This document shows positions 6,046-42,117 of a DNA stretch of 64,000 bases, piece after piece (position 1 is the first letter of the stretch; every line of letters begins with the position of its first letter). The stretch comes from Candidatus Omnitrophota bacterium (GTDB taxonomy: Bacteria; Omnitrophota; Gorgyraeia; 2-01-FULL-45-10), in contig JAUYOL010000001.1 of NCBI GenBank assembly GCA_030695905.1, positions 2,023 through 66,022 of the forward strand, in the 5' to 3' direction. The position numbers and the translations under genes are program-made. Under the pieces are notes generated by a model. It worked only from the letters and a program-made list of their open reading frames with translations, did not search any database and had not been told where the DNA came from.

Positions 6046-6067
6046 CTCGGTAAAAACCTCTTTCTTT

Positions 6068-6086
6068 ATTGAAAACAATTTTCAAT
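6068..6086. promoter_or_regulatory. Palindromic operator ATTGAAAAcaaTTTTCAAT (Fur-box-like) upstream of the FTR1 operon
   Basis: Perfect 7-nt inverted arms TTGAAAA/TTTTCAA seen in sequence about 25 nt upstream of the FTR1 start; a near-identical copy lies upstream of fur. Confidence 0.4.
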
Positions 6087-6102
6087 TACTAAACAAAAAA
6101 AA

Positions 6103-6531
6103 CTATTTCTTATGTTTGCTGCATATCCCGAATATCTGAAGCTTGTGCCTCAACGGGGTAAAATGCTTTTCTTTCGCTAATTTTTCCTGCAACTCCTCTA
6201 TTTTCGGCTTTACCACTTCCGTATAGCTTCCGCATTTGACACAGATAAGATGATCGTGATGTTCATGTCCATATCGATGCTCAAACCTTGATATGCCGTC
6301 CCCAAAATCGACCTCATTGCAAAGGCCGGCTTCTTCCAGCAATTTCATCGTCCTATATACGGTAACATAGCCTATTTTGGGGGTTTTTTTCTTCACGATT
6401 TTGTATAATTCGTCCGTAGAGAGGTGCATCTCCACCGAGAGGAATACTTTCAGTATCTCTTCCCTCTGAGGCGTGTATCTTAGACCCTTCTCCCTGATAA
6501 ACTTTTCCAGTATCTCGATCTCTTTTTTCAT
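6103..6531 (-). CDS. fur: Fur-family metalloregulator
   Basis: DNA-binding wHTH N-terminus plus HEHHDHLICVKCG metal-site motif. Likely ATG start at 6531 (MKKEIEILEKF), whereas the track used GTG 6543. Confidence 0.8.
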   Translation of the reverse strand: MKKEIEILEKFIREKGLRYTPQREEILKVFLSVEMHLSTDELYKIVKKKTPKIGYVTVYRTMKLLEEAGLCNEVDFGDGISRFEHRYGHEHHDHLICVKCGSYTEVVKPKIEELQEKLAKEKHFTPLRHKLQIFGICSKHKK

Positions 6532-6559
6532 GTCATCTTCCACCTTTGTATGATTTTTT

Positions 6560-6578
6560 ATTGAAAAGTGATTTCAAT
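6560..6578. promoter_or_regulatory. Second copy of the ATTGAAAA-N5-TTTCAAT palindrome upstream of fur
   Basis: ATTGAAAAgtgaTTTCAAT seen about 30 nt upstream of the fur start; shares arms with the 6068..6086 site. Confidence 0.4.
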
Positions 6579-6620
6579 AATATCACGCTCATCGATTCCT
6601 GTCAAGAATTATTTTTAATT

Positions 6621-7571
6621 TTATCTAAAAACCTTCTCTAAGATAAAACCGCAGGACATAAGCAGAGAGAAAACGATAATCAGCGCAATCGCTGAGGCAT
6701 TAGCGGGAAGAAGTTTCTGAACATCCATATAGTGTTTATGCGCTGTCTTTGCCGTTTTAAAACTAAGTGGAGCGCTCAAGAATACCAAAACGCACGATAG
6801 GGGAAAGATTTTCATTATCAGACCTATCAAGGTAAGTACGAATGCTAGCGGCTGCAGCCAGATAAAAACCAGCGCCGCGTTTTTTTTACCTAAACGCACT
6901 ACCAGATTTTTTTTACCGGTCTTATCATCTGCTTCAAAATCCGGAATTTCATTTATCCATAGAACCAAACCGGCTAGAATACCCGTAATAACGCCGGCAC
7001 ATAGGGACACCTTGTCAAAATGCCGAACTTGCGCGTAATACGCACCGCTCACCAAGAGTGGACCAAAGCCTATAACTACAGACAATTCGCCTAAGCCTCT
7101 GGCGGAAAGATTGACCCGCGGCTCGACATAGCCGACAGCCAGAAACATCCCGATTATACCCAAAACCAATACAGGCCAGCCGCAAAGAACGACCAAAACC
7201 AAGCCGATAGCCGCGCCCGCACTCAAGAGCCCGATGCCTGCCTTAAGCAAAGTCTGCGGCTTAATAAGGTTTTCTTGTATAACCCTTGAGCCGCCGCTAT
7301 ATGGCGTAACGGTTTCATTAATATTATCCGTTCCGCTCAAAAAGTCAAAATAGTCGTTCAAGCAGCTTGCGCCGAAATGGATGCAGGCCGAGCTCACCAA
7401 AACCGCTAAAAATAAGCCGAAGTTAAAATACCCTTGGTTATAGGCTATCGCCGTACCCAGGAGAGTTAAAACAATGGTTAATAAAACAAATGGCGGGCCT
7501 AAAACCTTAAGCCAGGCATAAACCGTTTCTGTAGGCGACTGGGCAATAAGCCGCCGAATCTTAACCGGCAT
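6621..7571 (-). CDS. UbiA-superfamily membrane prenyltransferase (MenA/UbiA-like)
   Basis: 316 aa, polytopic; Asp-rich NDYFDFLSGTD motif characteristic of UbiA-family prenyltransferases. Confidence 0.65.
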   Translation of the reverse strand: MPVKIRRLIAQSPTETVYAWLKVLGPPFVLLTIVLTLLGTAIAYNQGYFNFGLFLAVLVSSACIHFGASCLNDYFDFLSGTDNINETVTPYSGGSRVIQENLIKPQTLLKAGIGLLSAGAAIGLVLVVLCGWPVLVLGIIGMFLAVGYVEPRVNLSARGLGELSVVIGFGPLLVSGAYYAQVRHFDKVSLCAGVITGILAGLVLWINEIPDFEADDKTGKKNLVVRLGKKNAALVFIWLQPLAFVLTLIGLIMKIFPLSCVLVFLSAPLSFKTAKTAHKHYMDVQKLLPANASAIALIIVFSLLMSCGFILEKVFR

Positions 7572-8097: not shown

Positions 8098-9079
8098 TCA
8101 AATCCTTCATCTGTTCGTATTTCTTTATAAATGAAATCACTTCCGGCCGCTTCCAGCCTTCCTTTAAATATTCTTCCCAAATTTGTTTTATCGACTGCTT
8201 ACGTAAATTGCCATAAGTGAAAGGCAATAGCAAGTCTAGCCTTAAAGTTGCTTCCGGAGTAATGATGCACCAGATATTGGGAGCAGCCGAACGCACGCTA
8301 AGGTAAGTCTTTAAAACCTGCTTTTCCGGAGAGGGTGCAATGATTGTCATTTTATCAGAATATTTCTTGGCCGATTCATCCAGTGATTTAAAAAATTCGG
8401 TATACTGTTTATCGCCCAGGGCGATCGAAGCGGAATTCAGGGCAGCCCGGCCTGTCAAGACCAGCATATCCGTGACAAAATACTCCAGATCCATTTCCGC
8501 GCAGAGCGCGATCACATTACCCACATCGAAATAATTCACGCTGGAGGGCACAAAGGAAACATGGACGCGCACGCCGTTATTTTTAAGCAGTTTTACCGCA
8601 GCGACGGATTTTTCCCAGCTGCCTGCCAAGCCTCTCGCTTTTTCATGGGTTTCGGCCGTTGAGCCGTCTATGCTGATCTGCACCCACTTTACCTTGAGTC
8701 GCGCCATTTCTTTTGCCGCGGCCTCGTCTACCTTGGTGCCATTGGTAATTATCCCTACTTGTATATCATATTCTCTTAACTTGCTGACGATCTGCGCCCA
8801 GTCATCGCGTAACAGTGCCTCGCCGCCGGTAAGATAAACCTCGAATACCCCTAATTCTCCCAACTGTTGGGCGATCTTAATAGCTTCGGAGGTATTAAAT
8901 TCTTTTGCGGAAGACTTTGAATTAGCATTGTAATAACAATGTACGCAGGAAAGGTTGCATTTATTGGTCAATTCCCAAAGCCCAAAAATGGGGGCCTTAA
9001 AATACTTTGGCAGTATCTCTTTCTTATTTAAGGTATCGATGCGCTGCGTAAAACTATTTGTAAATGTTGGCTCGGACAT
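8048..9079 (-). CDS. Radical SAM enzyme, PqqE-like N-terminus, with cysteine-less SPASM-like C-terminal remnant
   Basis: CNLSCVHCY (CxxxCxxC) and GGEALL glycine-rich motif. The C-terminal ...IWCIITPEATLRLDLLLPFTYGNLRKQSIKQIW resembles the SPASM tail (GNL..sl..IW) but carries only 2 Cys in total. Confidence 0.8.
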   Translation of the reverse strand: MSEPTFTNSFTQRIDTLNKKEILPKYFKAPIFGLWELTNKCNLSCVHCYYNANSKSSAKEFNTSEAIKIAQQLGELGVFEVYLTGGEALLRDDWAQIVSKLREYDIQVGIITNGTKVDEAAAKEMARLKVKWVQISIDGSTAETHEKARGLAGSWEKSVAAVKLLKNNGVRVHVSFVPSSVNYFDVGNVIALCAEMDLEYFVTDMLVLTGRAALNSASIALGDKQYTEFFKSLDESAKKYSDKMTIIAPSPEKQVLKTYLSVRSAAPNIWCIITPEATLRLDLLLPFTYGNLRKQSIKQIWEEYLKEGWKRPEVISFIKKYEQMKDLIAERTIPYVTEDIHYE

Positions 9080-9167
9080 AAGTTAGCATTTTATCTTGTT
9101 AACCTTATTAAATCAAGGGGAATTCCACTATTTTAAATTGTGCCAGTGACTATTTATCGAGGGTTTT

Positions 9168-12100
9168 TTAAATGTGCTTTCCGGACGAGAGACTGCTAAT
9201 ATCGACCGTTCCGTGCTTCATCTCATATTTCCATTTCCAAATCGCATATATGGGCGGGTAGACTAATAACTCCATAATAAAACTTGTAAATACACCGCCT
9301 ATCATGGGGGCCGCGATACGTTTCATCATGTCAGCGCCGGTGCCCATGGACCACATGATCGGAATTAAACCCATAAACATAGCCATAACCGTCATCATCT
9401 TCGGCCTTATGCGCTTTACGGCGCCGTGAATTATCGCTTCCTTCAGATCTTCGTATGTCTTCATCCTGCCCTCTCTTACTCTCTCATTATATGAAAGATC
9501 CAGGAATAACAGCATAAAAACACCTGTTTCCGCGTCCAGGCCCATCAGCGCTATCATGCCTACCCAGACAGCGATAGAAATATTGTACCCAAGTATATAC
9601 AGTATCCATATCGCTCCTACGAGGGAGAATGGCACCGCGAGCATGACTATGGAGGCCTTTACCGGAGACTTGGTATTCATGTAGAGCATGACAAATATTA
9701 TAAAAATAGTTATCGGTATCACAAGCTTCAGTCTTTCTCTGACCCGCATCATATTTTCATACTGGCCGCTCCATTGTAAGCTATACCCTGTGGGTATTTT
9801 GAATTCTCTGTTTACTATATTTTTTGCCTCTGTAACGTAACTGCCGATATCGCGGCCGGCAATATCGACATAGACATAACCTGAAAGCATGCCGTTTTCG
9901 TCCCTTATCATGGCGGGGCCCGTGACGAGGTGTATGTCGGCGAGCTGGCCAAGCGGTATCTGCGCGCCGCTCATCGTAGGAACAAGTACGCGGCGAAGTT
10001 TATCCAGATCATCTCTTAATTCACGGGCATAACGCACATTAACCGAATACCGTTCTCTGCCCTCAATAGTAGTTGTAACACCTTCGCCTCCTATCGCTGA
10101 CATTATCACCATTTCAGCATCTTTTATTGTCAGGCCATATCTGGCCAGTTGGTCGCGTTTAATATCAAAATCAACAAAATAACCGCCTGTGACACGCTCG
10201 GCATAGATAGAGCGCGTGCCTTTAACGCCCTTCAAGATCATTTCAAGATGCGTGCCTATTTTTTCTATTTCATCCAGATTCGCGCCGTATATTTTTATTC
10301 CCACAGGCGTGCGCACCCCTGTCGATAGCATGTCTATCCTTGCCTTGATAGGCATGGTCCAGGCATTCGTTACGCCGGGGAATTGGAGTTTTTCGTCCAA
10401 TTCATTTATTATATCTTCCCATGTAATACGATCTCTCCAGATGGCCTTAAACGGCGCCTGTAATATATCCGGCATCCATGAATACCAGCGATGCACTTTT
10501 CTCCATTGATCTTCCGGCTTCAATATTATTGTGGTCTCCATCATGGAAAAAGGCGCCGGGTCCGTGGATGTCTCCGCCCTTCCCGCCTTACCGAATATCC
10601 TCTCAACCTCAGGCACAGTCTTTATAACTTTATCCATGGTCTGAAGCAGCGCCTGAGTCTCTGTTACGGATATGCCGGGTAAAGTGGTGGGCATGTAAAG
10701 TATAGAGCCTTCATTCAAAGGCGGCATGAATTCGTTCCCCAGCTTAAAATATATGGGGATGGTTAAAATCATTAATACTATGGCCGCTATTATTGTGGTC
10801 TTGCGGTATTTCAGGACAAACTTACAGGCAGGTTCATAAATAGCGAATAAAATTTTACTCACAGGATGTTTTTCTTCTGGATAATATTTTCCGACGGTAA
10901 TCGCATTGACTATATTTGATAACCATTTGGGCTTAAAGTGCTTATAATCCATTCTTGTAAAGAGCATGCGCAGCGCAGGGTCGAGCGTGATGGCCAATAT
11001 AGCGGCGATCGCCATGGCCAGGTTTTTGCTGGCCGCGAGCGGCCTGAATAATCTTCCTTCCTGATCGACGAGAGTAAATACCGGCAGGAATGCCACTGCT
11101 ATGACCAGCAACGAAAAGAATACTGATGGGCCCACTTCCTTTAAGGCCTTCAGCCTGACCTCATGAAAATCCCCGACGCGCCCTCCCGACTGCCACAACT
11201 CCAGCTTCTTATAGGCATTCTCCACTTCCACGATTGCCCCGTCGACCAGAACTCCTATTGATATCGCTATGCCGGATAGCGACATGATATTTGAGGTCAA
11301 CTTGAGTCCATATAAAGGTATGAATGAAAGCAGCACCGCAATCGGTATTGTAACAATGGGTATTATAGCGGAAGGAAAATGCCATAAAAATATCAGGATG
11401 ACAATACTTACTATTATCATCTCTTCCGTCAATTGATGCTTCAAGGTGTCGATGGAGCGTTTTATTAACTCCGAGCGGTCGTAAGTGGTAACGAGCGCTA
11501 CCCCTTCGGGTAACGAGGCCTTGACCTCCTGGATCTTTTCTTTAACACTGTTGATCACATTAAGGGCGTTCTCGCCCTGACGCATGACGATTATACCGCC
11601 TACTGTATCGCCCTCGCCATCAAGGTCAGCGACGCCGCGGCGTATATCCGGCCCTAGAACAACCGCGCCGACATTTTTTACTAAAATGGGCACTCCGGAC
11701 TTGTCAACGCTGATAACTATATCCTCGATATCTTTGACGGATTTCGCGTAACCTCTGCCGCGTACCATGTATTCTTTGCCTGAAAATTCCACGAGCCGCC
11801 CGCCAACGTCATTATTTCCGTCGCGGATGGCGTCCACTATTTTAGCTATCGGGATGTTGTACTGCAGAAGAGCGGATGGGTTAACATTGACCTGATATTG
11901 TTTCTGAAAACCGCCTACGGACGCGACTTCTGCCACGCCCGGAACACTCTGCAGCCAATAGCGCAAATACCAATCCTGGAACGACCGAAGTTTTGCCAGG
12001 TCGTTTTTACCGGATTTGTCGACAAGCGCGTATTGGTACACCCAGCCCACGCCTGTCGCGTCAGGCCCCATTTCCGTTTTTACGCCTTCGGGCAATTTGG

Positions 12101-12452
12101 GGATTATCTTGCTTAAGTATTCCAACGTGCGGCTGCGCGCCCAATATATGTCTGTCCCGTCTTTGAATATGACGTATACGTAGGAAAATCCGAAGTCAGA
12201 AAATCCGCGGATCGCCTTGACTTTCGGCGCACCGAGCATCGCGGTTACTATAGGATATGTTACCTGATCTTCGATAATATCGGGTGAGCGGTCCCAGCGC
12301 GAATAGATTATAACCTGGGTATCGGACAGGTCGGGGATAGCATCAAGGGGTATATTCCTGACACAGTATACTGCCGCAACTATGGCCGCAACAGTAAATA
12401 TTATTACTATATATTTATTCTTTGCGGAAAACTCTATTATTCTTTCGATCAT
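9168..12452 (-). CDS. cusA: CusA/CzcA-family heavy-metal RND efflux pump
   Basis: 1094 aa, 12-TM RND architecture, with the HME-type N-terminus. Confidence 0.9.
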   Translation of the reverse strand: MIERIIEFSAKNKYIVIIFTVAAIVAAVYCVRNIPLDAIPDLSDTQVIIYSRWDRSPDIIEDQVTYPIVTAMLGAPKVKAIRGFSDFGFSYVYVIFKDGTDIYWARSRTLEYLSKIIPKLPEGVKTEMGPDATGVGWVYQYALVDKSGKNDLAKLRSFQDWYLRYWLQSVPGVAEVASVGGFQKQYQVNVNPSALLQYNIPIAKIVDAIRDGNNDVGGRLVEFSGKEYMVRGRGYAKSVKDIEDIVISVDKSGVPILVKNVGAVVLGPDIRRGVADLDGEGDTVGGIIVMRQGENALNVINSVKEKIQEVKASLPEGVALVTTYDRSELIKRSIDTLKHQLTEEMIIVSIVILIFLWHFPSAIIPIVTIPIAVLLSFIPLYGLKLTSNIMSLSGIAISIGVLVDGAIVEVENAYKKLELWQSGGRVGDFHEVRLKALKEVGPSVFFSLLVIAVAFLPVFTLVDQEGRLFRPLAASKNLAMAIAAILAITLDPALRMLFTRMDYKHFKPKWLSNIVNAITVGKYYPEEKHPVSKILFAIYEPACKFVLKYRKTTIIAAIVLMILTIPIYFKLGNEFMPPLNEGSILYMPTTLPGISVTETQALLQTMDKVIKTVPEVERIFGKAGRAETSTDPAPFSMMETTIILKPEDQWRKVHRWYSWMPDILQAPFKAIWRDRITWEDIINELDEKLQFPGVTNAWTMPIKARIDMLSTGVRTPVGIKIYGANLDEIEKIGTHLEMILKGVKGTRSIYAERVTGGYFVDFDIKRDQLARYGLTIKDAEMVIMSAIGGEGVTTTIEGRERYSVNVRYARELRDDLDKLRRVLVPTMSGAQIPLGQLADIHLVTGPAMIRDENGMLSGYVYVDIAGRDIGSYVTEAKNIVNREFKIPTGYSLQWSGQYENMMRVRERLKLVIPITIFIIFVMLYMNTKSPVKASIVMLAVPFSLVGAIWILYILGYNISIAVWVGMIALMGLDAETGVFMLLFLDLSYNERVREGRMKTYEDLKEAIIHGAVKRIRPKMMTVMAMFMGLIPIMWSMGTGADMMKRIAAPMIGGVFTSFIMELLVYPPIYAIWKWKYEMKHGTVDISSLSSGKHI

Positions 12453-12453
12453 A

Positions 12454-13734
12454 TTATTGGCCGTGTTTGTGTTCGGCGCTTTGGGATGCGGCCTTTAACT
12501 TGCTTTCCGAATCTATCAGAAAATTGCCGCTCGTTATCACTATATCGCCTTCTTTCAAACCATCCAACACTTCATAATAACCTTCGGCCTTGGGGCCCAG
12601 CCTGACTTCGCGCGACTCCAAAACGCCGCTTTCTTCCGACAGGTAGACTATCTTTCTTAAGCCCGTATCCAGAACAGCGTCTTGAGGCACCGCCAATTTT
12701 TCGCCCATGTTTTCTTTGATCTTGGCGTTAACAAACATCTCCGGTTTTAATTTGTCGTCAGGATTCGGTATCTTCACCCGCACCTGATTGGTTCTTGTCG
12801 CAGGATCCAGCACCGGATTAATGGAAACTACAACGCCTTTGAATATTTCGCCCGGATAAGCAACCGCCTCTATCTCTACAGGTGTGCCGACTTTAACAAG
12901 GCCTATCTCGTATTCATAGATAGCTACATAAGCCCATACGCTTTCTCCTTTTGCGGGAAGGTAAAGGCTCGTATCGGCTTTTCTTGAATTTTGCAATTCG
13001 ACTATCTGTTCATCGCTCATGCCGAGAAGCTTCAACTTGCGGCGAGCTGCCTGCGTAAGCGACTTTGCCCTTTCCACAACATCCAAAAGCGGCGAATCCT
13101 TCACATTATCTTCATTCTTAATTGCTTGAATAAATTCTTCCTGCGTTACCATCAATTGCGGGTCATACGCTATCTTGCCCGACGCGCGTATGGCCCTTAT
13201 TAATTCTAATCTTTTGACGAGCTCGGTTCTCACCCCTATAAGCTGTTGTTTTTCAGGGCTTATCATCACGGTGGTACCGGAAACTGCTGCGGCTTGCGGC
13301 TGTTTTGTTATCTGGATGACCTTGCCGCTGGCCGTAGATATTACCTCTCCGCAAATAGGGCAGATTATCCTTTCGCCCGGTTTCAGCATCGTCTTCACGT
13401 ACATGGTGCAATCTTTCATCGTGCAATCGTGTTCTATGCATACTTCTTCTAAGCTTTTTTCCGGCGCCTGCGTTACGGTTTTTGCGGGCTCCGGGGATTT
13501 TTCTATCTTCACTAATTTCATGCCGCATATAGGACAATCACCAGGCCTGTCTGATGTGTATGCCGGATGCATAGGACAACGGTACACGACCTTGTCTTGA
13601 CCTGAAACGGTGCCTTCTTTTTGGGCGCATCCTTGAATTACAAACGATATGCCAAAAATCAGTACAAGCGCCGTTATCACTACTATAATATTCTTGCTAT
13701 TTTTTCTCATTAGCTTCCTTCTCCTGTAATTCAT
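12454..13734 (-). CDS. cusB: CusB-like membrane fusion protein with N-terminal tandem CxxC heavy-metal-binding domains
   Basis: YRCPMHP...CPICGM and CTMY...CPICGE motifs, then a biotinyl-lipoyl/beta-barrel MFP core. Confidence 0.8.
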   Translation of the reverse strand: MNYRRRKLMRKNSKNIIVVITALVLIFGISFVIQGCAQKEGTVSGQDKVVYRCPMHPAYTSDRPGDCPICGMKLVKIEKSPEPAKTVTQAPEKSLEEVCIEHDCTMKDCTMYVKTMLKPGERIICPICGEVISTASGKVIQITKQPQAAAVSGTTVMISPEKQQLIGVRTELVKRLELIRAIRASGKIAYDPQLMVTQEEFIQAIKNEDNVKDSPLLDVVERAKSLTQAARRKLKLLGMSDEQIVELQNSRKADTSLYLPAKGESVWAYVAIYEYEIGLVKVGTPVEIEAVAYPGEIFKGVVVSINPVLDPATRTNQVRVKIPNPDDKLKPEMFVNAKIKENMGEKLAVPQDAVLDTGLRKIVYLSEESGVLESREVRLGPKAEGYYEVLDGLKEGDIVITSGNFLIDSESKLKAASQSAEHKHGQ

Positions 13735-14986
13735 CTAAAGTAATACCCATAGCCTTTTCAAGATCGGCAAGCGCTATCCTAAGTTCTAAGATCGCCTTGT
13801 AGTGGTCGATCTTAAAGTCTTCCAGATTACGCTGGCTGTCTAATAATGTCAGAAAATCTGTTACCCCCGAAGAATAGCCTTTTAACGAGGCCTTTACGGT
13901 CTCGTCTGCCTGCGGAAGAAAGGCCGTCTCATACAACTCCACCACTTTTTTATTGGCTTCCACTCTCGCGTGAGCATCCCTTACGTTGAACAAAACCATA
14001 TTTTCTTTAGCTCTGTATTCCGCCTTTAACATATCAAGTTCGGCCTTCATCTCTTTTACGCCGAAAGCCTGTTTTTGAAAAAACCAAAGCGGCACCGTAA
14101 CGCCGAGCATGCCTGCCCACATTCTTTTTTCAGTCTTGTCGGGCCCGACCATCTGTCTGAATCTTACGACAAAGTTCGGCATGAATTCATTGATCGACAA
14201 ATCATATGCTGCTTTGCCCCTCTCTATGCCGTACCGGTACGCCTTAAGCTCCGGGTTATAAAATTGCGCGGTCGCATAGAATTTTTCGAGCGGATAATTA
14301 AACGAAATTGCGTCCTCAGCCGAAGGAAGCCCCATCTCTTCCTTAGGGTCTCTGTTCATGAGGGTATTGATCTTAGCCTGCGCGGAGAGCCTTTTCTGCT
14401 CGAGCATAATAAGTTCATTATCTATCTTTGCCAGTTCCACCTGGGCCCTCAAAGCGTCGGCTTGCGTCCCGGTATCTGTCGAATATCTTGCGGTTGCGCT
14501 TTCTGAGAATTGTTCGAGAAGATTTTTCTGGTCCTTTATCACATCAATTGATTTATAGATGAGAGAGAGTTCCGCATAGGCACTCTTGACTTGTGATATT
14601 ATCTCTCTCTCTTTAGTTTTATAATTTTCATACGCCATCTTCGCCAATTTTGACGCTATCTTAGCGCGCAAATACAATTTCGTCGGGAAGGGGATCTCCT
14701 GCGTGATGCCGTAGGTAGTCATCGGTTTGCCGCTTAAGTCTCTGTCTGCGGTGATTCTATCATATTCCATATCGAACATCGGATCATCCAGGCTTGCCGC
14801 CTGCCAGATTCTGGCGCTCGCTGCTTCATACGCTCTTTTGACTACGGAAATTTCGGGGTTAGACTTGAGAGTCTCGTCGATAGTGGCTTTTAGGGTAAAT
14901 GACCCTTCTGCAAAGGCATCATAATAGCCCAGCATGACACCCCCCAGAATCAAAATAAGAATTATAGCTATATATCTAATCTTCAT
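13697..14986 (-). CDS. cusC: TolC/CusC-family outer-membrane efflux protein
   Basis: 429 aa; signal peptide and two coiled-coil/beta-barrel repeats typical of OMF proteins. Confidence 0.8.
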   Translation of the reverse strand: MKIRYIAIILILILGGVMLGYYDAFAEGSFTLKATIDETLKSNPEISVVKRAYEAASARIWQAASLDDPMFDMEYDRITADRDLSGKPMTTYGITQEIPFPTKLYLRAKIASKLAKMAYENYKTKEREIISQVKSAYAELSLIYKSIDVIKDQKNLLEQFSESATARYSTDTGTQADALRAQVELAKIDNELIMLEQKRLSAQAKINTLMNRDPKEEMGLPSAEDAISFNYPLEKFYATAQFYNPELKAYRYGIERGKAAYDLSINEFMPNFVVRFRQMVGPDKTEKRMWAGMLGVTVPLWFFQKQAFGVKEMKAELDMLKAEYRAKENMVLFNVRDAHARVEANKKVVELYETAFLPQADETVKASLKGYSSGVTDFLTLLDSQRNLEDFKIDHYKAILELRIALADLEKAMGITLDELQEKEANEKK

Positions 14987-15070
14987 ATAATTATGTTATT
15001 ATCGCAAATATAGCACATGAAACTTGTTTTGGCAAATACCGGCTCTTAACCGCCATAGTATAATCTGCTC

Positions 15071-17290
15071 TTATCCGCTTCTTTTGTACCTTCTCATTAA
15101 CAAAGAGTTTCCTACTACCGAAACAGAACTAAATGCCATTGCCGCCCCAGCTATCATTGGATTCAGCAAAAATCCTGTAAAAGGATAGAGCAGCCCCGCG
15201 GCAATGGGTATTCCGACAATATTATAAAAAAACGCCCAAAAGAGGTTCTGCCTTATTTTACTCATGGTATATCCCGACAATTCAATAGCAGCGACCACAT
15301 CCCGCAGGTCATCCTTTATCAAAGTAATATCCCCGGATTCAAGGGCTACGTCCGTACCTGAACCTATAGCAATACCCAAATCCGCCTGCGTCAGGGCAGG
15401 GGCATCATTTAGTCCATCGCCAACGAACGCGACTTTTATCCCTTCGGATTGTAAGCGCACGATCTCCTTTAGTTTTTCTCCCGGCAGTACTTCGGTTAAA
15501 ACTTTATCTATGCCCAGCTCCTTCGCAATTACCTGCACTGTGCGCCTATTATCTCCCGACATTATAAGTATTTCTTTCCCCATTTTTTTAAGTCTAGAGA
15601 TTGTATCATGCGCAAAATTTTTTAAACTATCTCTGAACGCCAAGAGCCCAGTTAACTTTTCATCTTTTATTAAATACACTACGGTCTTGCCTTCATTTTC
15701 CAACCTTCTCACATCCTCTTCCGCCATGCGGACATCAATACTTTTCTTTTGCATGAGGCTGCGGTTTCCCACAATAATTTCGCTGCCATTTATACTGCCT
15801 ACTATGCCATTGCCCGGCAAAGACACGAATTTATCTACCGAATAAAGAGAAATTTTATTCGACTTCGCGGCGTTTATAACGGCTTCGGCTAAAGGATGTC
15901 CCGATTTGTTTTCTAAAGATACGCCGAGCCGTAAAACTTCCCGTTCGTCACAATTGTAAGTTTTTATATCCGTAAGCTGCGGCTTACCAATAGTCAGGGT
16001 CCCGGTCTTATCGAATATTACTACCTTAACCTGCCCGGCTATTTGTAAAGAGGCCGCGTTTTTGATAATAATCCCATTTTCCGCGGCCTTACCCGTGCCT
16101 ACCATAACAGCCGTTGGTGTTGCTAATCCCAATGAGCATGGGCAAGCAATGATTAGTACGGATATAAAAGCACTTAGCGCAAAAACAAAATCTTTTCCTA
16201 AAAAAATCCAGCCAAAAAACGAAAGGCAGGCAATTATCAATACTGTTGGAACAAAGATGGCGGCGATTTTGTCTGCCAACTGCTGAACAGGAGCCTTAGA
16301 CCCCTGCGCTTCTTCAACCAACTTTATTATCTGGGCCAGAGTTGTTTCGCGGCCCACCTTTGTCGCTTTAAATTTAAATGATCCGCTTTTATTTATTGTT
16401 CCCCCGATTACGGTATCGCCAATTGTCTTTTCAACCGGCATGCTTTCACCTGTGACCATAGACTCATCTACGCTTGAATAACCTTCGATGATCTTGCCAT
16501 CAACCGGAATTTTTTCTCCGGGCTTAACTATAATGATGTCACCTATAATTAATTCCTCAACGGGCATTTTTTCTTCCATGCCATTTCTTACAGTGGCGGC
16601 TATTTTTGGCTTAAGACCCATCAGTTTTTTGATCGCTTGTGATGTTTTCCTTTTGGAAATCGATTCGAGGTATTTTCCCAACAAGATAAAAGTGGGCAGA
16701 AAAGCGGCTACTTCATAATAAAGATTTTGCATGCCAAATGACTTATCCTGTGACCATATCATAATGCTTACAAATAGACTATACAGGTAAGCGCTCCCCA
16801 CCCCCAAAGCCACCAGGGTATCCATGCTGGCTCGATGTAGTTTAACTATGGTAGAAAATCCTCGACTGAAAAATTGATAGCTGCAGATTAAAACCCCTGT
16901 CGCCAAAATAAACTGCCATAATGCCATGGCCTCCATAACAAACTCAGGAACTGGTAAATCAACACAGGAACCCATCGAGATATACATCAGTGTGGAGGAG
17001 AGCGTTACCGCTATAATAAATTTTAATTTTAAGCGGTTTGTTTCTTTATCGGATTGTCTTTCCCTATTTAAAGAGGCATCTTCGGGCTCCGCGCTATAGC
17101 CTGTTTTTTTAATCGCTGTTATGATATCGAGTGTATTTATTGTTTCGGGATTATACTCTATATATGCCTTTTCTGAAGCAAAATTGACACGAGCGTTCTC
17201 GATGCCCTTAAATTTCTTTAAAGAGATCTCTATATTGGCTGCGCAGGAGACGCAATGCATCCCGAAAATATTTAAAATGATTTTTTTCAT
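15071..17290 (-). CDS. copA: Copper-translocating P1B-type ATPase
   Basis: HMA domain [15 protein letters not shown] motif [30 protein letters not shown]. Confidence 0.9.
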
Positions 17291-18348
17291 TATTTGATTC
17301 CCATTTGCAGAAGATATTTCTTTACACTTAGGGATGCCTTAGCCCCTTCTCCCGAAGCGATAATTATTCTTTTTCCAAAACAATTGGTAACATCGCCGCA
17401 AGCGAATATGCCTTCGACATTGGTGGAACAGTCGGGGTTTATTGCTATTTCTCCTTTTTCATTTAACTTAACCAGGTCCCTGCAAAATTCAGTGTTTGGA
17501 ATAAAGCCCATCTCGATGAATACGCCACTACAGGAGACCTGTTTTGTTGTCAACTTATCGGAAGATTGGATGACAACACCATCTATTCTATCTTCCCCTT
17601 TGATTTCAATAACAGTATTGTTCTCGATGATATTTACAGCACCGCCCCTTTTAAGCTCTTTAATATTATATGGGTTGGCGGTAAGCCTATCTTTTGATAT
17701 AAGCGATACTTTGCATCCCGCATTTTTAAGTTCGGTAGCTGCCCCAACAGCAAAATCTCCTCCCCCCACAACAACTACATCTGCTTCTTTAAATAACGCG
17801 GCGTCCTGGACATAATAATATGAAACTCCGCGCCTCACAAACTTCTCTTCACCTGGTACACCCAGTGTCTTTTGTTTTATCCCTGTAGCAATGATAAGCG
17901 CATAAGTAGTTATGCTGCTTTCGTCCTTGGTAAATACCTCAAAAATGTTTCCTTTCCGGATAATCTTAACAACTTCGTCTATCTTGTGCTCTAAGTAATG
18001 CTCATGTAAAAATTGACGCTCAAATTTCTCCACGAGCTCTTTCCCGCTAATAAAATCAAAACCCATGTAGTTTTTAATTTTTGCGCTGTTAATAGCCTGA
18101 CCGCCGATATTATTTGTTACCACGAAAGTGTCGATTTTTAAAGCAGACGCATAAACAGCTGCTGTCAATCCTGCCGGGCCTGCGCCGATAATAACCAGGT
18201 CGTAAACATATTTCGCCATGGCCTCCTCTGAAGACCCCTTAAATTTTTCCAAGCATCCCTTGGAACAAAAAAAGTATTTTTTGCCTCCAATCTCAAAAAC
18301 GAATTGTTCGCTTTCCACTCTCATGCCGCAAATAGGGTCTTTGATCAT
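17290..18348 (-). CDS. TRASH/YHS metal-binding domain fused to a thioredoxin-reductase-like FAD/NAD(P) flavoprotein lacking the CxxC redox centre
   Basis: N-terminal ICGMRV...YFFCSKGC. Two Rossmann GxGxxG motifs (IIGAGPAG; [12 protein letters not shown]). At the usual CATC position it reads [10 protein letters not shown]. Confidence 0.7.
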
Positions 18349-18408
18349 TCGAGCCCTCCTTTATTTAAAGAGTGAATGAAAAGATTTAAATCAAGATCCT
18401 TCTAATCA

Positions 18409-18564
18409 GTGCTTGCTGCCATGCTCGGTATTTTCATGTATAAGGCTATGCTCGATTGCGCCTATTCTTAAACATATATCAACAAGCGTGATGGTTGTAA
18501 AAATAATATATACAACGCCGGCGGCTACTAATAGTTTCCAGTAAATGGGCTTTATTTTATTCAT
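18409..18564 (-). CDS. Candidate small membrane peptide with His-rich tail (not in ORF track)
   Basis: Hand translation MNKIKPIYWKLLVAAGVVYIIFTTITLVDICLRIGAIEHSLIHENTEHGSKH (about 52 aa). GAGGGA lies upstream; it sits between the YHS protein and TRASH-flavoprotein genes. Confidence 0.25.
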
Positions 18565-18582
18565 AACCTTTTCCCTCATTTG

Positions 18583-18918
18583 TTAACGCGTATGGCCTTC
18601 ATGTGTTGTATGTTCGCCGCTGGTAACCTCTTTCGCCTTTGCGATATATTTCTCCGGATTATTTTTGAATGCGTCGATGCACATCGGGCAGCAGAAATTG
18701 TAGATCTTGCCCTTATGTTCATAAGTCGTGTTTCCGTCCACTTCTTCACCGCTTATAGGGCAGGTCTTATTGCCTACATTAACGGCATCTGTGTCCTGCG
18801 CATATGCTTGACCTGAATCTTTATGGCTATCCATATCACACGACATGGCAAAAGATATCCCGCTCATCCCGAAAATAACTATCGCCGCAAACAATATAAT
18901 TTTTATTTTACCGATCAT
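18583..18918 (-). CDS. Secreted YHS/TRASH-domain metal-binding protein
   Basis: Signal peptide, then CPISGEEV...YNFCCPMC YHS-type motif and a His-rich C-terminus. Confidence 0.6.
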   Translation of the reverse strand: MIGKIKIILFAAIVIFGMSGISFAMSCDMDSHKDSGQAYAQDTDAVNVGNKTCPISGEEVDGNTTYEHKGKIYNFCCPMCIDAFKNNPEKYIAKAKEVTSGEHTTHEGHTR

Positions 18919-19082
18919 CTTAATCTCCTTCCGTTATCTTTTTTCCATTTTTACTATTTCACTATGGGCAGTTTAACGTCTTGCCCCGGACAATATACAG
19001 CACCCTTCTTTACAACGCGCCACGGGTCTAATAAGCCAACGAATATAGTTTCTCGCCATTTTGATCATCCCCCTTTCTGATA

Positions 19083-19370
19083 TCAGCTCGTCTTTCTAAA
19101 TTTGGAGATTGTCTCCACCACTTCATTGATTTTCTTTAACTTTTCTATCTCGGACTTTCCTTTAAGAGCGGTGACAACACAGCCTTCCACATGCTTTTTG
19201 AAAATCTCATCCTCAACCCTGTAGAGCGCGCCTATGATAGAGCGTATCTGGGTAATGATATCTATGCAGTATCTTCTTTCCTCAATCATATGCTGTATGC
19301 CGCGGATCTGGCCTTCGATCTTGTTTAAAAACTTTATCTGCTCTTCATGCGTGGTTATCTGTTTTTTCAT
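19083..19370 (-). CDS. csoR: CsoR/RcnR-family copper-sensing repressor
   Basis: 95 aa; the RYCIDIITQIRSI ... HVEGC pattern gives the C-H-C metal ligands of CsoR. Confidence 0.8.
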   Translation of the reverse strand: MKKQITTHEEQIKFLNKIEGQIRGIQHMIEERRYCIDIITQIRSIIGALYRVEDEIFKKHVEGCVVTALKGKSEIEKLKKINEVVETISKFRKTS

Positions 19371-19401
19371 AGATATGCTCTCCTTTTTATACAGTGTAAG
19401 T

Positions 19402-19423
19402 ATACCATACCCCCCTATGGTAT
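19402..19423. promoter_or_regulatory. CsoR-type operator: ATACCATA-CCCCCC-TATGGTAT
   Basis: Perfect 8-nt inverted repeat flanking a C6 tract, about 30 nt upstream of csoR; resembles known GC-centred CsoR operators. Confidence 0.5.
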
Positions 19424-19448
19424 GTCAAGTATTAAAAAATAAATGCGG

Positions 19449-20075
19449 CTAAATTTTTCTTACCACGTATTCCAAAATACAGTCGGCCTGTTTGGCAGCA
19501 GCTACATTCACTCGCGGTGATAAGGCGGGCTTATGGCAGATATCGGACTTAAGATCCCCTATCATGACGAGATTATCTTTTATCCTATGGACCCTTATAT
19601 CGTCGCTTGAGCCGACACCGCCAAGACCTGAAACCGCTACGATAAACTTTTTCATCTGAAGTAGCTTTTCCAGAAGCATCCTCTTGTATTCGGCCGTATC
19701 AAGGCACTCCGCCACGATATCACATCCGCCGAATATCTCATCTATATTATTCTCGTCTATCTTTTTATTCACTGCTTTAAGTTTAAGGGCCGGATTTATC
19801 CTTAATAGGTTTTCTTTAAGCGCCTCTACTTTAATCCTGCCCACCTGATCCAGAAAATAGAACTGCCTGTCGAGATTCGTGGCATCCACCGTGTCGAAAT
19901 CCGCTATAGTGAGATTCGCAACGCCCGCCCTTACTAAATTCATGGCGCAATTCGACCCTAAGCCTCCCGCGCCCGCGATCCCAATTTTAGCGGCCTGGAC
20001 TTTTTTGAAACTCTCTTTGCCCAGCTTCTTAGCTATATCAGCGTGAAATATATCTATCGTCATATATGCATCCAA
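19449..20075 (-). CDS. thiF: ThiF-like E1 adenylyltransferase for ThiS
   Basis: [10 protein letters not shown] Rossmann motif; position in the thi operon. Confidence 0.75.
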
Positions 20076-21118
20076 TCTTTGAATACTGCCTGATACCCAT
20101 TCTTGTCGAGCATCGCCTTTATCTCTTCTACGCCTCTTGAGTCTGATATCTCAAATTGGGCTGTGCAGTCATCGGCTTCATATTTTATCGTATGGCCTCC
20201 GACGCGTGTAGTGGAGCCAGCGGACATCCTCGTAATGCCCAAGGGTATCAGGTTCTCGCGCAATTCCGGCCTTTCGCGCGTAGACAGCGCTATCCCCAGT
20301 CTCGGAAGAAAAATTCTTAGGGCCAGTATTATCTGGACTAAATTTTTATCACTTACTTCATGATCCGCTCTAAAACCGCTTACCTGAGGCCTTATTCTGG
20401 GAAGCGACACTCCTATCTCAACATCCGGAAATTTGTCCCGCAGATACTTCGCGTGAAGGCCAAGAATAAATATCTCTTTTCTCCAATCGGCAAGCCCCAG
20501 AAGAACACCTATATTTATATTTCTCATGCCGGCCTTTGCTCCGCGCTCCGGCGCGTCGAGACGAAAACGATAGTCACTCTTTGGCCCTTTTGGATGCATA
20601 TTATCATATATATTTTCGTCGTATACCTCCTGATATATAGTAAGCCCGTCGGCACCTTCGCAAATAAGCTGCGAATATTCTTCCTCGGTAAGAGAGTAGA
20701 CTTCTATCGATATGGATGAAAAATATTTTTTTAGCAGCCTGACGCAATCTCTGATATAACTTACCGGGCTCATCGATCTGGATTCGCCTGTAAGTATGAG
20801 AATATGCCTTAAACCCGTCGAAGAAATGGCGCGGGCCTCATCTTCTACCTCTTTGAGAGTAAGCGTTCTTCTCTCTATCTTGTTATTAACATTGAAGCCG
20901 CAATACAGGCAAAGATTATCGCAGTAATTTGAAAGATACATCGGCGTATATAGCCCGATGGTCTTGCCAAAATATCTTAATGTAAGGCCACGGGCATTTT
21001 GAGCCATCTCTTCCAAAGAGCCTTCTGCCGCAGGAGACAGCAGGGCAGTAAATTTTTGAATCTCGGATTCATAACTGCCGGAATTTTTATATCTTGAAAA
21101 TACTTCATAAAAACTCAT
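20060..21118 (-). CDS. thiH: 2-iminoacetate synthase (radical SAM)
   Basis: [10 protein letters not shown] CxxxCxxC motif; 352 aa; thi operon context. Confidence 0.8.
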
Positions 21119-21129
21119 ATCTTTTCCTG

Positions 21130-21921
21130 CTAACTCTCTCTTAAAAATCCGGTTAATGGGCTGGATGCGCTTGCATTAATAGATTGGGACGGGATACCAC
21201 CCAGATATCCGAGCCTTCCGGCCTTGACAGCTATGCTGAATGCTTTTGCCATAACGGCAGGATCTTGGGCTATAGCTATCGCCGTATTTACTAATACAGC
21301 CGCACAGCCTAATTCCATACAGTCGCATGCGTCGGAGGGCCTGCCAAGCCCCGCGTCTACAATAACCGGGATCTTTATCTCTCGCACTATGATCTCGATC
21401 AGCTCTCGTGTCTTAACACCTCTATTGCTTCCTATCGGAGAGCCCAGCGGCATTATGGCCGCCGCTCCTGCATCGACCATCCTTCTTGCTGCTGATAGAT
21501 CAGGGCTCATATATGGGAATACCTTAAATCCGTCTTTGGCCAGTATCTCGGTTGCCTTTAATGTCTCCATGTTATCCGGCAATAAATATTTATTGTCCTG
21601 GATAACTTCTATCTTGACCCAATCGCACGCGCCAGTTGCCCTGGCCAACCGCGCTATTCTTACGGCCTCATCGGCATTTCTCGCTCCGGACGTATTAGGC
21701 ATAACTATACAATTTTTTGGCACATAGTCCAGTATGTTTTCCGTCTTAGAGGCGCTATCAACCCTTCTTAAAGCAACGGTGGCCACTTCTATCTCTGATT
21801 CCTCCAGCGCCCGTTTCATTACAGAATAATTAGAAAATTTGCCTGTGCCGATAAAGAGCCTGTTTGATATCGATTTACCACCTATATTCAATATATCCTG
21901 CACTTTATCCTCCTCCAACAA
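21130..21921 (-). CDS. thiG: Thiazole synthase
   Basis: 263 aa TIM-barrel ThiG-like sequence (GTGKF, Schiff-base Lys region). Confidence 0.85.
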
Positions 21922-22105
21922 AGCTGACTATCTCGACATTGTCGTTTTCTTTCAACGCGATGCCCCGCCACTCGTCTTTTGAAATTATCTTAAGGTTGTA
22001 TTCTACCACTATATGTTCCGGCACGAGCCCTTTTGCCGATATGAGTTCCATCAAATTCACCGGTTTATCTATCGATTCACTTTTGCCGTTTATCTTTAGT
22101 ACCAT
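21905..22105 (-). CDS. thiS: Sulfur-carrier protein ThiS
   Basis: 66 aa ending in -GG; overlaps thiG and thiE. Confidence 0.75.
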
Positions 22106-22739
22106 TTTTGATTGCCCTCTTAAATTCTTTGGTTTTTTTAACTACATCATCTGCCTGGGTAATGCCTCTTATTAAAGCTATATTCTTCGCCCCCTTATTA
22201 AGGCAGCCGCCTATATTCGCGAGATCTATCCCGCCGATAAAGAATACCGGTTTTTTCGCTATATTTAATACTTTATCTACTCCATCGATACCTATGCAAT
22301 AATCCTTTGTTTCCGTTTCAAATAGAGGGCCAAACGCCACATAATCAAAATCTTTTTCGTTAGCTTCCCTGAACTGTTCTTCCGAATGAGTCGATATGCC
22401 TATTATTTTTTTGCGCCCCAGAAGACGGCGGGCCATTTCAAGAGAAAATAACTTAATGTCCTCCTGGCCCAGGTGGACCCCGTCGGCGCCTACCTCTTTC
22501 GCGAGCATAGGATCATCGTTGACTATGAATGTCACGTTGTTGTTTCTACAAAGACCCGACAACTTCTTGCCAAGCTCAACAAGTTCTTTGGCGGTCTTAT
22601 TCTTCTCTCTCATCTGGATAATATCAACTCCGCCTTTAATGGCGTGCTTTGCGATCTCAATGGCATTGCGGCCGCATCCATATTCTTCGCTTATCACCAG
22701 GTATAGACTATAATCTTTTATTTTTTTCATACTCCTCAA
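22077..22739 (-). CDS. thiE: Thiamine-phosphate synthase
   Basis: ThiE-like (..GGVDIIQMREK..). The track start is TTG 22739; ATG at 22730 (MKKIKDYSLY) is the likely start. Confidence 0.8.
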   Translation of the reverse strand: MRSMKKIKDYSLYLVISEEYGCGRNAIEIAKHAIKGGVDIIQMREKNKTAKELVELGKKLSGLCRNNNVTFIVNDDPMLAKEVGADGVHLGQEDIKLFSLEMARRLLGRKKIIGISTHSEEQFREANEKDFDYVAFGPLFETETKDYCIGIDGVDKVLNIAKKPVFFIGGIDLANIGGCLNKGAKNIALIRGITQADDVVKKTKEFKRAIKNGTKDKRQK

Positions 22740-22782
22740 TAAAATGACCCTTGTGCCGAAGCATAAGGGTCCTTAAAATCTA

Positions 22783-22873
22783 TTCCCCACGCTGGCATTA
22801 TCCAGATCGGGTCCATTGGGTAATCCGCTTAAATCTTGCGGAACTCTCAGACCGAAATCATCGGCCTCCCCTC
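22783..22873 (-). promoter_or_regulatory. TPP (THI-box) riboswitch with terminator-type expression platform upstream of thiE
   Basis: Minus-strand RNA contains CUGAGA and ACCCGAUCUGGAUAAUGCCAGCGUGGGGA, which match the TPP aptamer consensus. This is followed by the hairpin GACCCUU...AAGGGUC plus a U-run (about 22744-22775). Confidence 0.8.
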
Positions 22874-22925
22874 TTGTTCTGTATATTAAACCACCTGCCA
22901 AAATGTTTGTCAAACGAATACTTTA

Positions 22926-27461: not shown

Positions 27462-27714
27462 AAATATATAAGATATCCCGCCTAATTAAAAATCCCCGCG
27501 ATTGCCGTGTGAAATCGAATTATCTTGATCCTGTTATTTACAGGTGGGTGCCCTCCAGATAAGCGCTAAAAGCTCCTACCCGAGTTAGGCTCCCAATATT
27601 AATGCTATTGGCTCAAGATTCTTCGCTCAAAGCACGCGCACCGCAGGGAATTTTTTACTTCCAAGACAAGTATAGCACATAAAATAGTGTAAATCAAATT
27701 GCGGTAAGCCTTGG

Positions 27715-41372: not shown

Positions 41373-41390
41373 GATATTCCTTTATATTGT

Positions 41391-41600
41391 TTACTTTACA
41401 GGGTCATATCCGCCGCGTGAGAACGGGTTGCAGCGTAAAACTCTCCAAATGCTTCTTACGCCGCCGGAGATTACCCCGTGTTTTTGAACAGCCTCTATGG
41501 CATATTCTGAACAGGACGGATAAAATCTGCAGCAACGTATGTTTATTATTGACAAATACTTACGATAAAACTTCAAGGCCGATATTACTATATACTTCAT
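41391..41600 (-). CDS. yidD: Membrane protein insertion efficiency factor YidD
   Basis: 69 aa; LKFYRKYLS...[11 protein letters not shown]. Confidence 0.8.
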
Positions 41601-41983: not shown

Positions 41984-42117
41984 ACGGTGAGCTTATATCT
42001 GCCCTTCTGTCTTCGTCTTTTTAAAACAGCTCTGCCATGGCGCGTGCGCATTTTCTTCCTGAATCCGTGCGTTCTCTTTCTCTTAATATTAGAGCCGGCT
42101 TTTAAAGTATACTTCAT
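41980..42117 (-). CDS. rpmH: 50S ribosomal protein L34 (not in ORF track)
   Basis: Hand translation [45 protein letters not shown]; stop TGA overlaps the rnpA ATG (ATGA). Confidence 0.75.

Follow-up and report, generated by a model that had tools for sequence, protein, structure and literature searches.

Thioredoxin reductase (TrxR, or TrxB) and the C-terminal module of AhpF share a two-Rossmann fold that binds flavin adenine dinucleotide (FAD) and the nicotinamide cofactor NAD(P)H, and it is against these enzymes that we first measure the protein discussed here, a 352-residue flavoprotein with an N-terminal YHS metal-binding domain, encoded in a 64,000-nucleotide stretch of DNA from a Candidatus Omnitrophota bacterium (contig JAUYOL010000001.1, positions 2,023 to 66,022; the whole stretch is called the window below). 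The fold is the same, at 33–37% identity, and so are the GxGxxG, GGQ, xNYxGF, GGGNS and GD motifs, and an Asp is likewise kept immediately after the CxxC site. AhpF also resembles the flavoprotein in carrying an N-terminal Cys-containing domain on a linker, and the closest relatives of the flavoprotein include fusions to glutaredoxin or thioredoxin domains. The differences are just as clear, since the Cys pair has been replaced by G/S/R/Y and then Q/H, the HRR motif for NADPH has gone, and H121 and K326-R327 are peculiar to the new family. In addition, the N-terminus is a 37-residue metal-binding YHS domain rather than the double thioredoxin-fold domain with CxxC found in AhpF, and the genomic context is copper export rather than peroxide or thiol metabolism.

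The modular logic is more reminiscent of MerA, in which an N-terminal soft-metal domain (NmerA) is likewise tethered to an NAD(P)H flavoprotein within a metal-resistance operon, and in which the metal-binding module recurs on the transport and chaperone proteins of the system. In the HMA world the chaperone, the metal-binding domain of the pump and the N-terminal domain of MerA are all one fold, between which metal is exchanged, and the sharing of a YHS module by flavoprotein, pump and mini-proteins parallels this arrangement of NmerA, CopZ and pump domain. MerA, however, belongs to class I (the glutathione-reductase type), with CxxxxC next to the flavin, a pair of Cys at its C-terminus, a dimerisation domain and an NmerA of the HMA fold. 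The flavoprotein has none of these features, and its C-terminal sequence contains no Cys at all.

Other known systems each share one part of the picture. FeS of Thermus scotoductus and the YumC-type ferredoxin–NADP+ reductases (FNRs) have a TrxR fold without the disulfide, as the flavoprotein does, and FeS is described in PMC4142287 as reducing metal directly from its flavin; yet these proteins have no metal-binding domain, are not tied to copper operons and are much more distant (FNRs E 1e-26 to 1e-13, against 1e-49 for TrxR). The C-terminal extension of the FNRs runs about 29–30 residues past the aligned core (3lzw, 7–303 of 332), whereas only 15 residues of the flavoprotein follow the end of the alignment. 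We considered classifying the protein as a TrxR-like FNR, and did not favour it given the weaker similarity (E 5e-26 for 3lzw against 3e-49 for TrxR) and the missing extension. The adenylyl cyclase of Mycobacterium phlei, which is copper-responsive, has a YHS domain with one Asp and three Cys joined to its catalytic domain by a linker of about 8–10 residues (PMC4626032), much like ours, but there the YHS is C-terminal and its partner a signalling enzyme, while here it is N-terminal, its partner is a redox enzyme and the gene lies within an efflux operon. Finally, CcoG, NDH-2 and the Fe-S (iron–sulfur) domain of Archaeoglobus fulgidus CopZ carry out Cu(II) to Cu(I) reduction ahead of Cu(I) handling, as we propose for the flavoprotein, and in CopZ, too, a redox part is fused to a chaperone part (PMC7558416). 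However, CcoG and CopZ rely on Fe-S clusters and have no known electron donor, NDH-2 is membrane-associated and unspecific, and none of the three combines a soluble NAD(P)H flavoprotein with a copper-binding domain of its own. By fold and, to judge from its sequence, by ancestry, the flavoprotein is a class II (TrxR/AhpF-type) enzyme, although one that lacks the CxxC by which TrxR and AhpF themselves are defined. We infer that it is a repurposed TrxR scaffold with MerA-like modular logic, at work in copper homeostasis and widespread in uncultured anaerobes.

The gene and its parts, all on the minus strand, are as follows.

17290..18348 (-): complete flavoprotein gene (YHS plus TrxR-like module), an open reading frame of 352 residues plus stop codon

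18238..18345 (-): YHS metal-binding domain, residues 2–37 (Pfam PF04945)

18205..18237 (-): linker, residues 38–48 (about 10), from the YHS to the first FAD beta-strand; variable in the alignment

17293..18204 (-): TrxR/AhpF-type two-Rossmann module for FAD and NAD(P)H, residues 49–352 (Pfam, NCBIfam and Foldseek)

17986..18000 (-): HYLEH, residues 117–121, with H117 and H121 family-specific (alignment of 241 homologues)

17803..17823 (-): SYYYVQD, residues 176–182, in place of the S-x-C-x-x-C-D of TrxR (residue-level alignment to 5mh4 and 3f8p)

17749..17766 (-): NAD(P)H glycine motif GGGDFA, residues 195–200 (alignment)

17368..17373 (-): K326-R327, family-specific (241/241 homologues)

A strong ribosome-binding site, AAGGAGG, lies 7 nucleotides 5' of the ATG, and the product is 100% identical to the NCBI entry 'MAG: FAD-dependent oxidoreductase [Candidatus Omnitrophota bacterium]' (P0001). 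The original prediction, made from the letters of the sequence alone, saw here a TRASH/YHS module fused to a two-Rossmann flavoprotein of the TrxR fold, and Pfam bears this out, with YHS scoring 42.2 bits against a gathering cut-off of 30.3 (E 8e-11) and Pyr_redox_2 covering residues 49–328 (E 8e-40). The N-terminal Cys motif was also correctly assigned to this putatively metal-binding module, but its pattern was misread as C-x-x-C...C; the real one is D4-P-x-C7-G-M9...F27-C28-S-x-G-C32, with Ile as the first variable residue and Lys as the second, which is the classic 'DPVCGM...FCSxGC' arrangement. D4, C7, M9, C28 and C32 are the candidate metal ligands, and the Asp plus three Cys among them (D4, C7, C28 and C32), conserved in the homologues, make up the set described in PMC4626032. 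An AlphaFold2 model, computed with 100 homologues as input and free of FAD and metal, has a mean predicted local distance difference test (pLDDT) score of 81.4 and consists of an N-terminal beta-hairpin and helix, a low-confidence linker (pLDDT below 50 at residues 42–44) and a TrxR fold. Foldseek matches it with probability 1.00 to many TrxR structures, and its top matches in the PDB are all TrxR or AhpF, that is, class II.

Nothing is missing from the motifs for FAD (GAGPAG) and NAD(P)H (GGGDFA) or from the GD motif (ACGDV), and with these motifs intact the protein evidently retains the binding of both FAD and NAD(P)H. The best solved relative is the TrxR of Lactococcus lactis (5mh4, E 3e-49), whose 'GVSYCAVCD' aligns without a gap to 'GVSYYYVQD' of the flavoprotein; because the alignment is ungapped and unshifted, the catalytic Cys pair of TrxR can be said to have become Tyr178 and Gln181, with Asp182 kept. 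That the redox-active disulfide was missing had been proposed already, together with the reservation that the CxxC might turn out to be merely shifted, and a far larger comparison now settles the point: among 241 full-length homologues, drawn from two subfamilies and about 8 bacterial phyla, not one has a Cys at either CxxC position. Position 178 is taken by G, S, R or Y; at position 181, 210 homologues have Q and 25 have H (235/241 together) and none has C, and at position 182, D occurs in 229 homologues and E in 11. Evidently, then, the flavoprotein is unable to perform the dithiol–disulfide chemistry of TrxR. The YHS cysteines C28 and C32, for their part, are kept in 241/241 homologues, which answers the other doubt raised beforehand, namely that orthologues might lack the N-terminal Cys motif. 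M9 is present in 236 of the 241 and C7 in 222, the remaining 19 being alignment gaps.

Further hallmarks set the family apart. H121 is found in 240/241 homologues and H117 in 225/241, and neither occurs in CxxC-bearing relatives; the invariant K326-R327 matches 'K-Q' in the nearest of those relatives and presumably corresponds to R293-Q294 of E. coli TrxR (TrxB). The HRR(xxxR) motif for NADPH specificity in TrxR is absent and S-K-D stands instead (aligned segment I-S-K-D-R-L-T-A), the equivalent positions across the homologues reading S/T/E and then D/K. At position 219, 93 of the 241 carry D and 89 carry K, Asp being typical of one subfamily and Lys of the other, and this split, along with the loss of HRR, hints that at least part of the family may use NADH. 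A shifted or compensating CxxC was also sought by scanning Cys residues near the motif and throughout the core: C212, C273, C289 and C317 are conserved only in the subfamily of the window, and C307 occurs in the CxxC-bearing sisters too, a pattern that leaves no family-wide, family-specific core Cys and hence no hidden replacement disulfide. As regards identity with the parent enzymes, the flavoprotein scores 263.3 bits with TIGR01292 (TrxB) against an equivalog cut-off of 343.45, and 229 bits with TIGR03140 (AhpF) against 503; with the CxxC and the N-terminal thioredoxin fold both missing as well, a TrxR or AhpF identity was ruled out.

How did such a protein arise? The best 120 homologues in a collection of 5.8 billion proteins are 53–78% identical, and all 120 have the YHS and lack Cys at both CxxC positions. 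A search seeded with a divergent member yielded more than 1,000 candidate proteins and brought in a further large subfamily, chiefly from Thermodesulfovibrionia/Nitrospirota and Thermodesulfobacteriota. The recurrence of the YHS fusion together with the double Cys loss across homologues is far beyond chance. The two traits were also set side by side in a profile search of a library of 1.84 billion representatives, in which 12 representatives have the YHS and none of these has CxxC, while 118 have CxxC and no YHS, several of them with N-terminal glutaredoxin- or thioredoxin-like domains. The nearest YHS-free relatives in this library retain CxxC, and in a neighbour-joining tree built on the flavoprotein core only, all the YHS-bearing representatives fall into one clade, whose sole other member is an N-terminally truncated fragment. 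From this distribution and the single clade, the gain of the YHS and the loss of the disulfide look like one evolutionary event, which by the sequence evidence would have given rise to a new enzyme type.

Fifteen full-length representatives have neither YHS nor CxxC, and since they do not show the GKR hallmark of the family, they probably represent separate losses of CxxC. These proteins (P0145, P0199, P0245, P0265, P0269 and others) are 300–333 residues long with no N-terminal domain and show motifs such as GVSYSAxxD; P0145 comes out as sister of the YHS clade in a crude tree.

These proteins are stored under generic or mistaken names ('FAD-dependent oxidoreductase', 'alkyl hydroperoxide reductase subunit F', 'thioredoxin-disulfide reductase'), the second of these being attached to many members in JGI and the third to one NCBI record. 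NCBIfam has no model specific to the YHS–flavoprotein architecture, full-text literature searches found no paper on a fusion of YHS/TRASH with a flavoprotein, and a plasmid search returned only an ordinary FAD oxidoreductase at 36% identity, from which we take it that the family is not on known plasmids.

In the window, every gene between 19370 and 9168 is on the minus strand, in the order csoR, secreted YHS, 57-residue open reading frame, flavoprotein, copA, outer-membrane factor, CusB-like adaptor and CusA-like pump of the resistance–nodulation–division (RND) type. The flavoprotein gene aside, the features are these.

19399..19428 (-): promoter TTGACA-18-TATACT with TG before the -10 (extended -10), a sigma-70-like match at 11/12 positions

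19402-19423 (-): 8-bp perfect inverted repeat ATACCATA-N6-TATGGTAT in the promoter spacer, a predicted CsoR-type operator

19083..19370 (-): csoR, copper-sensing repressor (PF02583, E 1e-23; best NCBIfam match RicR)

18583..18918 (-): secreted YHS protein, 111 residues, with a signal-peptide-like N-terminus (Pfam YHS, E 1.6e-8)

18406..18579 (-): candidate 57-residue open reading frame, flanked by the genes for the secreted YHS protein and the flavoprotein

15071..17290 (-): copA, P1B-1 Cu(I)/Ag(I) ATPase with N-terminal HMA (TIGR01511, 613 bits; HMA, E1-E2_ATPase and Hydrolase)

13697-14986 (-): outer-membrane factor (Pfam OEP)

12454-13734 (-): CusB-like adaptor with HMBD (HlyD_D23 plus HMBD; partial CusB similarity in NCBIfam)

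9168-12452 (-): CusA-like RND pump (Pfam ACR_tran)

The promoter, just upstream of csoR, is the top match in 9000–19600, and the inverted repeat ATACCATA-N6-TATGGTAT, which resembles known CsoR operators, is the sole exact ATACC-N12-GGTAT site in the window; an exact search for that pattern accordingly found no second CsoR operator within the operon. CsoR itself carries the Cu(I) ligand triad C35/H60/C64 in its translation, and that of CopA has the CPC, YN and MxxSS motifs typical of pumps for Cu(I)/Ag(I). The description of the flavoprotein gene as co-oriented with copA and adjacent to it was well founded: the TAA of the one and the ATG of the other share a base (TAATG) within the csoR operon, an overlap that implies translational coupling, and 3' of copA the CusCBA-type efflux genes span 9168..14986. 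Less accurate was its description as surrounded by YHS proteins and csoR, since csoR is there but the operon has just a single further YHS protein, secreted and encoded at 18583-18918, while CopA has an HMA domain and the CusB-like protein an HMBD. The secreted protein reads CPISGEE...YNFCCPMC. The 57-residue open reading frame has one predicted hydrophobic or transmembrane helix and a His-rich C-terminus (HSLIHENTEHGSKH), with no match in Pfam. In the CusB-like adaptor, an extra Cys/Met-rich segment (CIEHDCTMKDCTMYVKTM...ICPICGEVI) accompanies the N-terminal HMBD ahead of the membrane-fusion domains.

A survey of this fusion in copper operons elsewhere was an obvious check, and it covered the window plus 14 further independent loci (15 in total) in metagenome-assembled genomes, the further ones belonging to Omnitrophota, Bacteroidota, Chlorobi-type bacteria, Caldiserica, Planctomycetota, Eisenbacteria, Nitrospirota and Thermodesulfobacteriota. 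The peptide-pattern scan of contigs that contributed to it also matched ordinary TrxRs, so that from the scan only L001 and L002 count as true family members. A heavy-metal P1B ATPase lies no more than 3.2 kb from the family member in 13/15 loci and is directly adjacent in 6. Of the other two, L090 has a CsoR gene adjoining the family member and no nearby P1B ATPase, and L002, the locus of the divergent member, has neither P1B ATPase nor CsoR, a MerR-family regulator lying 2.7 kb off. The Cys-rich YHS module is always present, and the family is inherited with copper/silver export genes. Recurrent neighbours include CusABC genes, small P-II-like proteins, SHOCT, DUF302 and DUF5676 proteins, and mini-proteins consisting of HMA, HMBD or YHS modules.

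In essence, the YHS module of the flavoprotein (KDPICGM...) recurs at the start of the neighbouring ATPases and in the stand-alone YHS proteins of the cytoplasm, whereas the secreted YHS proteins form a subclass separate from this cytoplasmic DPVCGM...FCSxGC type. Those of the window (18583-18918) and of L001 (752-1141, plus strand) share CP[IV]SGEE...YNFCCxxC and a His/Glu-rich tail, and both their genes adjoin CusCBA genes (cusA in L001); they look like a periplasmic YHS subclass and are perhaps a CusF-like partner. P-II-like proteins (PF00543, about 100–114 residues) adjoin the family member or Cus genes in 9/15 loci (L001, L081, L082, L083, L085, L089, L091, L094 and L095), with none in the window. 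In L089, a Chlorobi-type copper island, the second gene upstream of the family member (5409-6746, plus strand) encodes an NDH-2-type flavoprotein (Pyr_redox_2 plus NDH2_C), and NDH-2 of E. coli is a reported Cu(II) reductase. In L091, a phosphoenolpyruvate (PEP)-utilising enzyme with a C-terminal YHS (5115-7004, plus strand; PEP-utilisers_N, PEP-utilizers and PEP-utilizers_C) is encoded directly 5' of the family member, with which its gene overlaps, and a YHS-ATPase then follows; here, too, a metabolic enzyme in a copper island is fused to a YHS.

What, then, might the flavoprotein do? Our favoured reading, to which we would give a probability of roughly 35%, is that it reduces Cu(II) at the expense of NAD(P)H and carries a tethered YHS domain as acceptor of the Cu(I), in the manner of MerA, though with another fold class and active site and probably another metal. 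This comes close to the dedicated NAD(P)H-dependent metal reductase that the original prediction thought plausible, and plausible it still is. On this reading the flavoprotein would be a cytoplasmic FAD enzyme that oxidises NAD(P)H and descends from a TrxR/AhpF-like disulfide reductase, having given up thiol–disulfide chemistry to act on a metal ion within a copper-export operon. NAD(P)H would reduce the FAD, for which the binding motifs are intact, and at the former CxxC site by the flavin, which now offers the hard ligands Gln/His181 and Asp182, the reduced flavin may give single electrons to Cu(II), or else to some different soft-metal ion that can be reduced. The Cu(I) so formed would, from what is known of the domain family, be caught by the YHS through Cys7, Cys28 and Cys32 with Met9 and/or Asp4, and the shared modules and synteny suggest that it could then be exported after ligand exchange with the metal-binding domains of the P1B ATPase that is co-translated, or with YHS mini-proteins that stand alone. 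This reading draws support from the linkage to P1B ATPases in 13/15 loci, from the overlap with copA behind a predicted CsoR-type operator-promoter in the window and from the YHS module that pumps and mini-proteins have in common; from the invariable presence of the YHS, the invariable loss of CxxC, the restriction of position 181 to Q or H and the keeping of D/E182; and from the existence of precedents in which flavoproteins without CxxC reduce metals. For instance, the CxxC-less, TrxR-like FeS of T. scotoductus reduces Fe(III), and the absence of CxxC is reported to be advantageous (PMC4142287, citing Bester 2010). The flavoprotein NDH-2 has Cu(II) reductase activity and the redox domain fused in A. 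fulgidus CopZ reduces Cu(II), while Cu(II) reduction in general is described as a prerequisite for export whose bacterial enzymology was, as of a 2020 review, almost unknown (all PMC7558416). The bolder version of the proposal, that these would be the first bacterial reductases dedicated to cupric (soft-metal) ions that are both soluble and NAD(P)H-dependent, reducing at the remodelled TrxR site (Q/H181-D182), trapping Cu(I) on the YHS and feeding the P1B pump, we offer as tentative and a little less probable again.

A number of observations weigh against a Cu(II) reductase, and they deserve to be set out together. Being soft, the YHS ligands (three Cys plus Met) favour Cu(I), and the domain would hold the product rather than the substrate; a metal would also have to reach the flavin, and the linker is no longer than about 10 residues. 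H117 and H121, which are invariant, sit in the FAD domain near the point where the N-terminal domain exits, and in the TrxR fold these positions are probably far from the isoalloxazine, which hints that the YHS docks away from the active site. To judge from the rubrerythrin, desulfoferrodoxin and pyruvate:ferredoxin oxidoreductase (PFOR) genes in the neighbourhoods, the hosts are mostly anaerobes, in which cytoplasmic Cu(II) should be short-lived, and 2/15 loci have no pump nearby. Moreover, the YHS on the adenylyl cyclase is experimentally a copper-sensor module (PMC4626032), and the PEP-utilising enzyme with a YHS tail in L091 suggests that a YHS can be a regulatory add-on.

It is these last points that lead to the main rival, an explanation we find doubtful but take seriously, in which the YHS would be an allosteric copper sensor that turns an NAD(P)H oxidoreductase on or off, the true acceptor being something other than copper (O2, quinone, Fe(III), rubredoxin/ferredoxin or another small oxidant) and the output one that could ease copper stress. 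The M. phlei cyclase, whose YHS is attached through an 8-residue linker, is activated by 1–10 uM copper and is proposed to bind it with one Asp and three Cys (PMC4626032), and in the flavoprotein this D/C/C/C set recurs next to a linker of comparable length. The YHS-tailed enzyme encoded directly 5' of the L091 member fits such a role, H117 and H121 could offer the YHS a surface to dock on or contribute with it to a composite site, and membership of the operon is accounted for equally well. But an operon repressed by CsoR already provides copper control, which makes a second sensor look redundant, and a switch leaves unexplained both the strict coincidence of YHS gain, CxxC loss and fixation of Q/H181 and the presence of the same YHS on pumps and mini-proteins; nor does the sequence point to any alternative acceptor. 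A related thought is that the YHS does the work, delivering Cu(I) to the pump or serving as a one-electron metal centre, with the redox state of the flavin (NADH/NAD+) setting metal affinity or release and with no net reduction of metal. A redox-gated chaperone or relay of this kind would suit a YHS module that is invariably present and common to pumps and mini-proteins, as well as the translational coupling to copA, yet a 300-residue enzyme with conserved FAD/NAD(P)H motifs and a constrained former active site is a costly device for pure regulation, and stand-alone YHS proteins exist in the same islands already, so that we regard it as unlikely.

The likeness to MerA could of course be taken literally, with Hg(II), Ag(I) or Au(III) being taken from the YHS and reduced, possibly to the elemental state. 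An N-terminal metal domain on a flavoprotein in a resistance island does mirror MerA, the P1B-1 and CusCBA systems of these islands also handle Ag(I), HMA, HMBD and YHS proteins abound there, and in L002 the divergent member has a MerR-family regulator in its vicinity. Nevertheless, MerA chemistry requires Cys pairs at the flavin and at the C-terminus, both of which the flavoprotein lacks; its score of 60 bits with TIGR02053 (MerA), against a cut-off of 454, rules out membership of that family; no merT, merP or merR was seen in any of the 15 loci; and the regulator in the window is a CsoR with a Cu(I) triad. A detoxifying reductase of this sort is to our minds a long shot. Least credible by a wide distance is that we are dealing with an ordinary TrxR or AhpF wearing a decorative N-terminal domain. 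The automatic annotation names say so, and the fold and the best sequence matches are indeed those of TrxR and AhpF, but the absence of both catalytic Cys from 241/241 homologues, the scores beneath the cut-offs, the want of the AhpF N-terminal thioredoxin-fold domain and the lack of any consistently adjoining ahpC or trx gene make this very improbable. A Cu(II) reductase with a tethered Cu(I) acceptor remains the reading that we favour.

The window has some neighbouring features that we record for completeness, two of them RNA elements.

22767-22882 (-): thiamine pyrophosphate (TPP) riboswitch (Rfam RF00059, 56.4 bits)

27489-27652 (-): 6S RNA gene (RF00013, 74.7 bits)

The riboswitch heads an apparent thiamine-biosynthesis operon (19449-22739, minus strand), with ThiF last at 19449, just upstream of the csoR promoter. 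The family member in L001 also adjoins thiamine genes, thiM and thiE, and we read the recurrence of thiamine genes at both loci as conserved synteny within Omnitrophota and not as a functional link. At about 40000–44000 the GC skew and AT skew flip sign, the cumulative GC skew has its minimum near 42 kb and the orientation of genes appears to switch, making this region a possible replication origin or terminus.

The family is widespread, sharply defined and mis-annotated, it is tied to copper-export operons and it has a clear site for NAD(P)H as electron donor. Annotation pipelines should drop the TrxR and AhpF names for it. CopA and CusCBA move only Cu(I), and in this family we have a directly testable candidate for the missing step of Cu(II) reduction. 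If the Cu(II) reductase reading is true, a MerA-style strategy of reduction and hand-off would operate for copper in many anaerobic phyla that may lack glutathione, and if instead the YHS is a sensor, this would be a new case of a metabolic redox enzyme switched by copper. On either account, a disulfide reductase scaffold would have been repurposed through the swap of an N-terminal domain and the deletion of a Cys pair.

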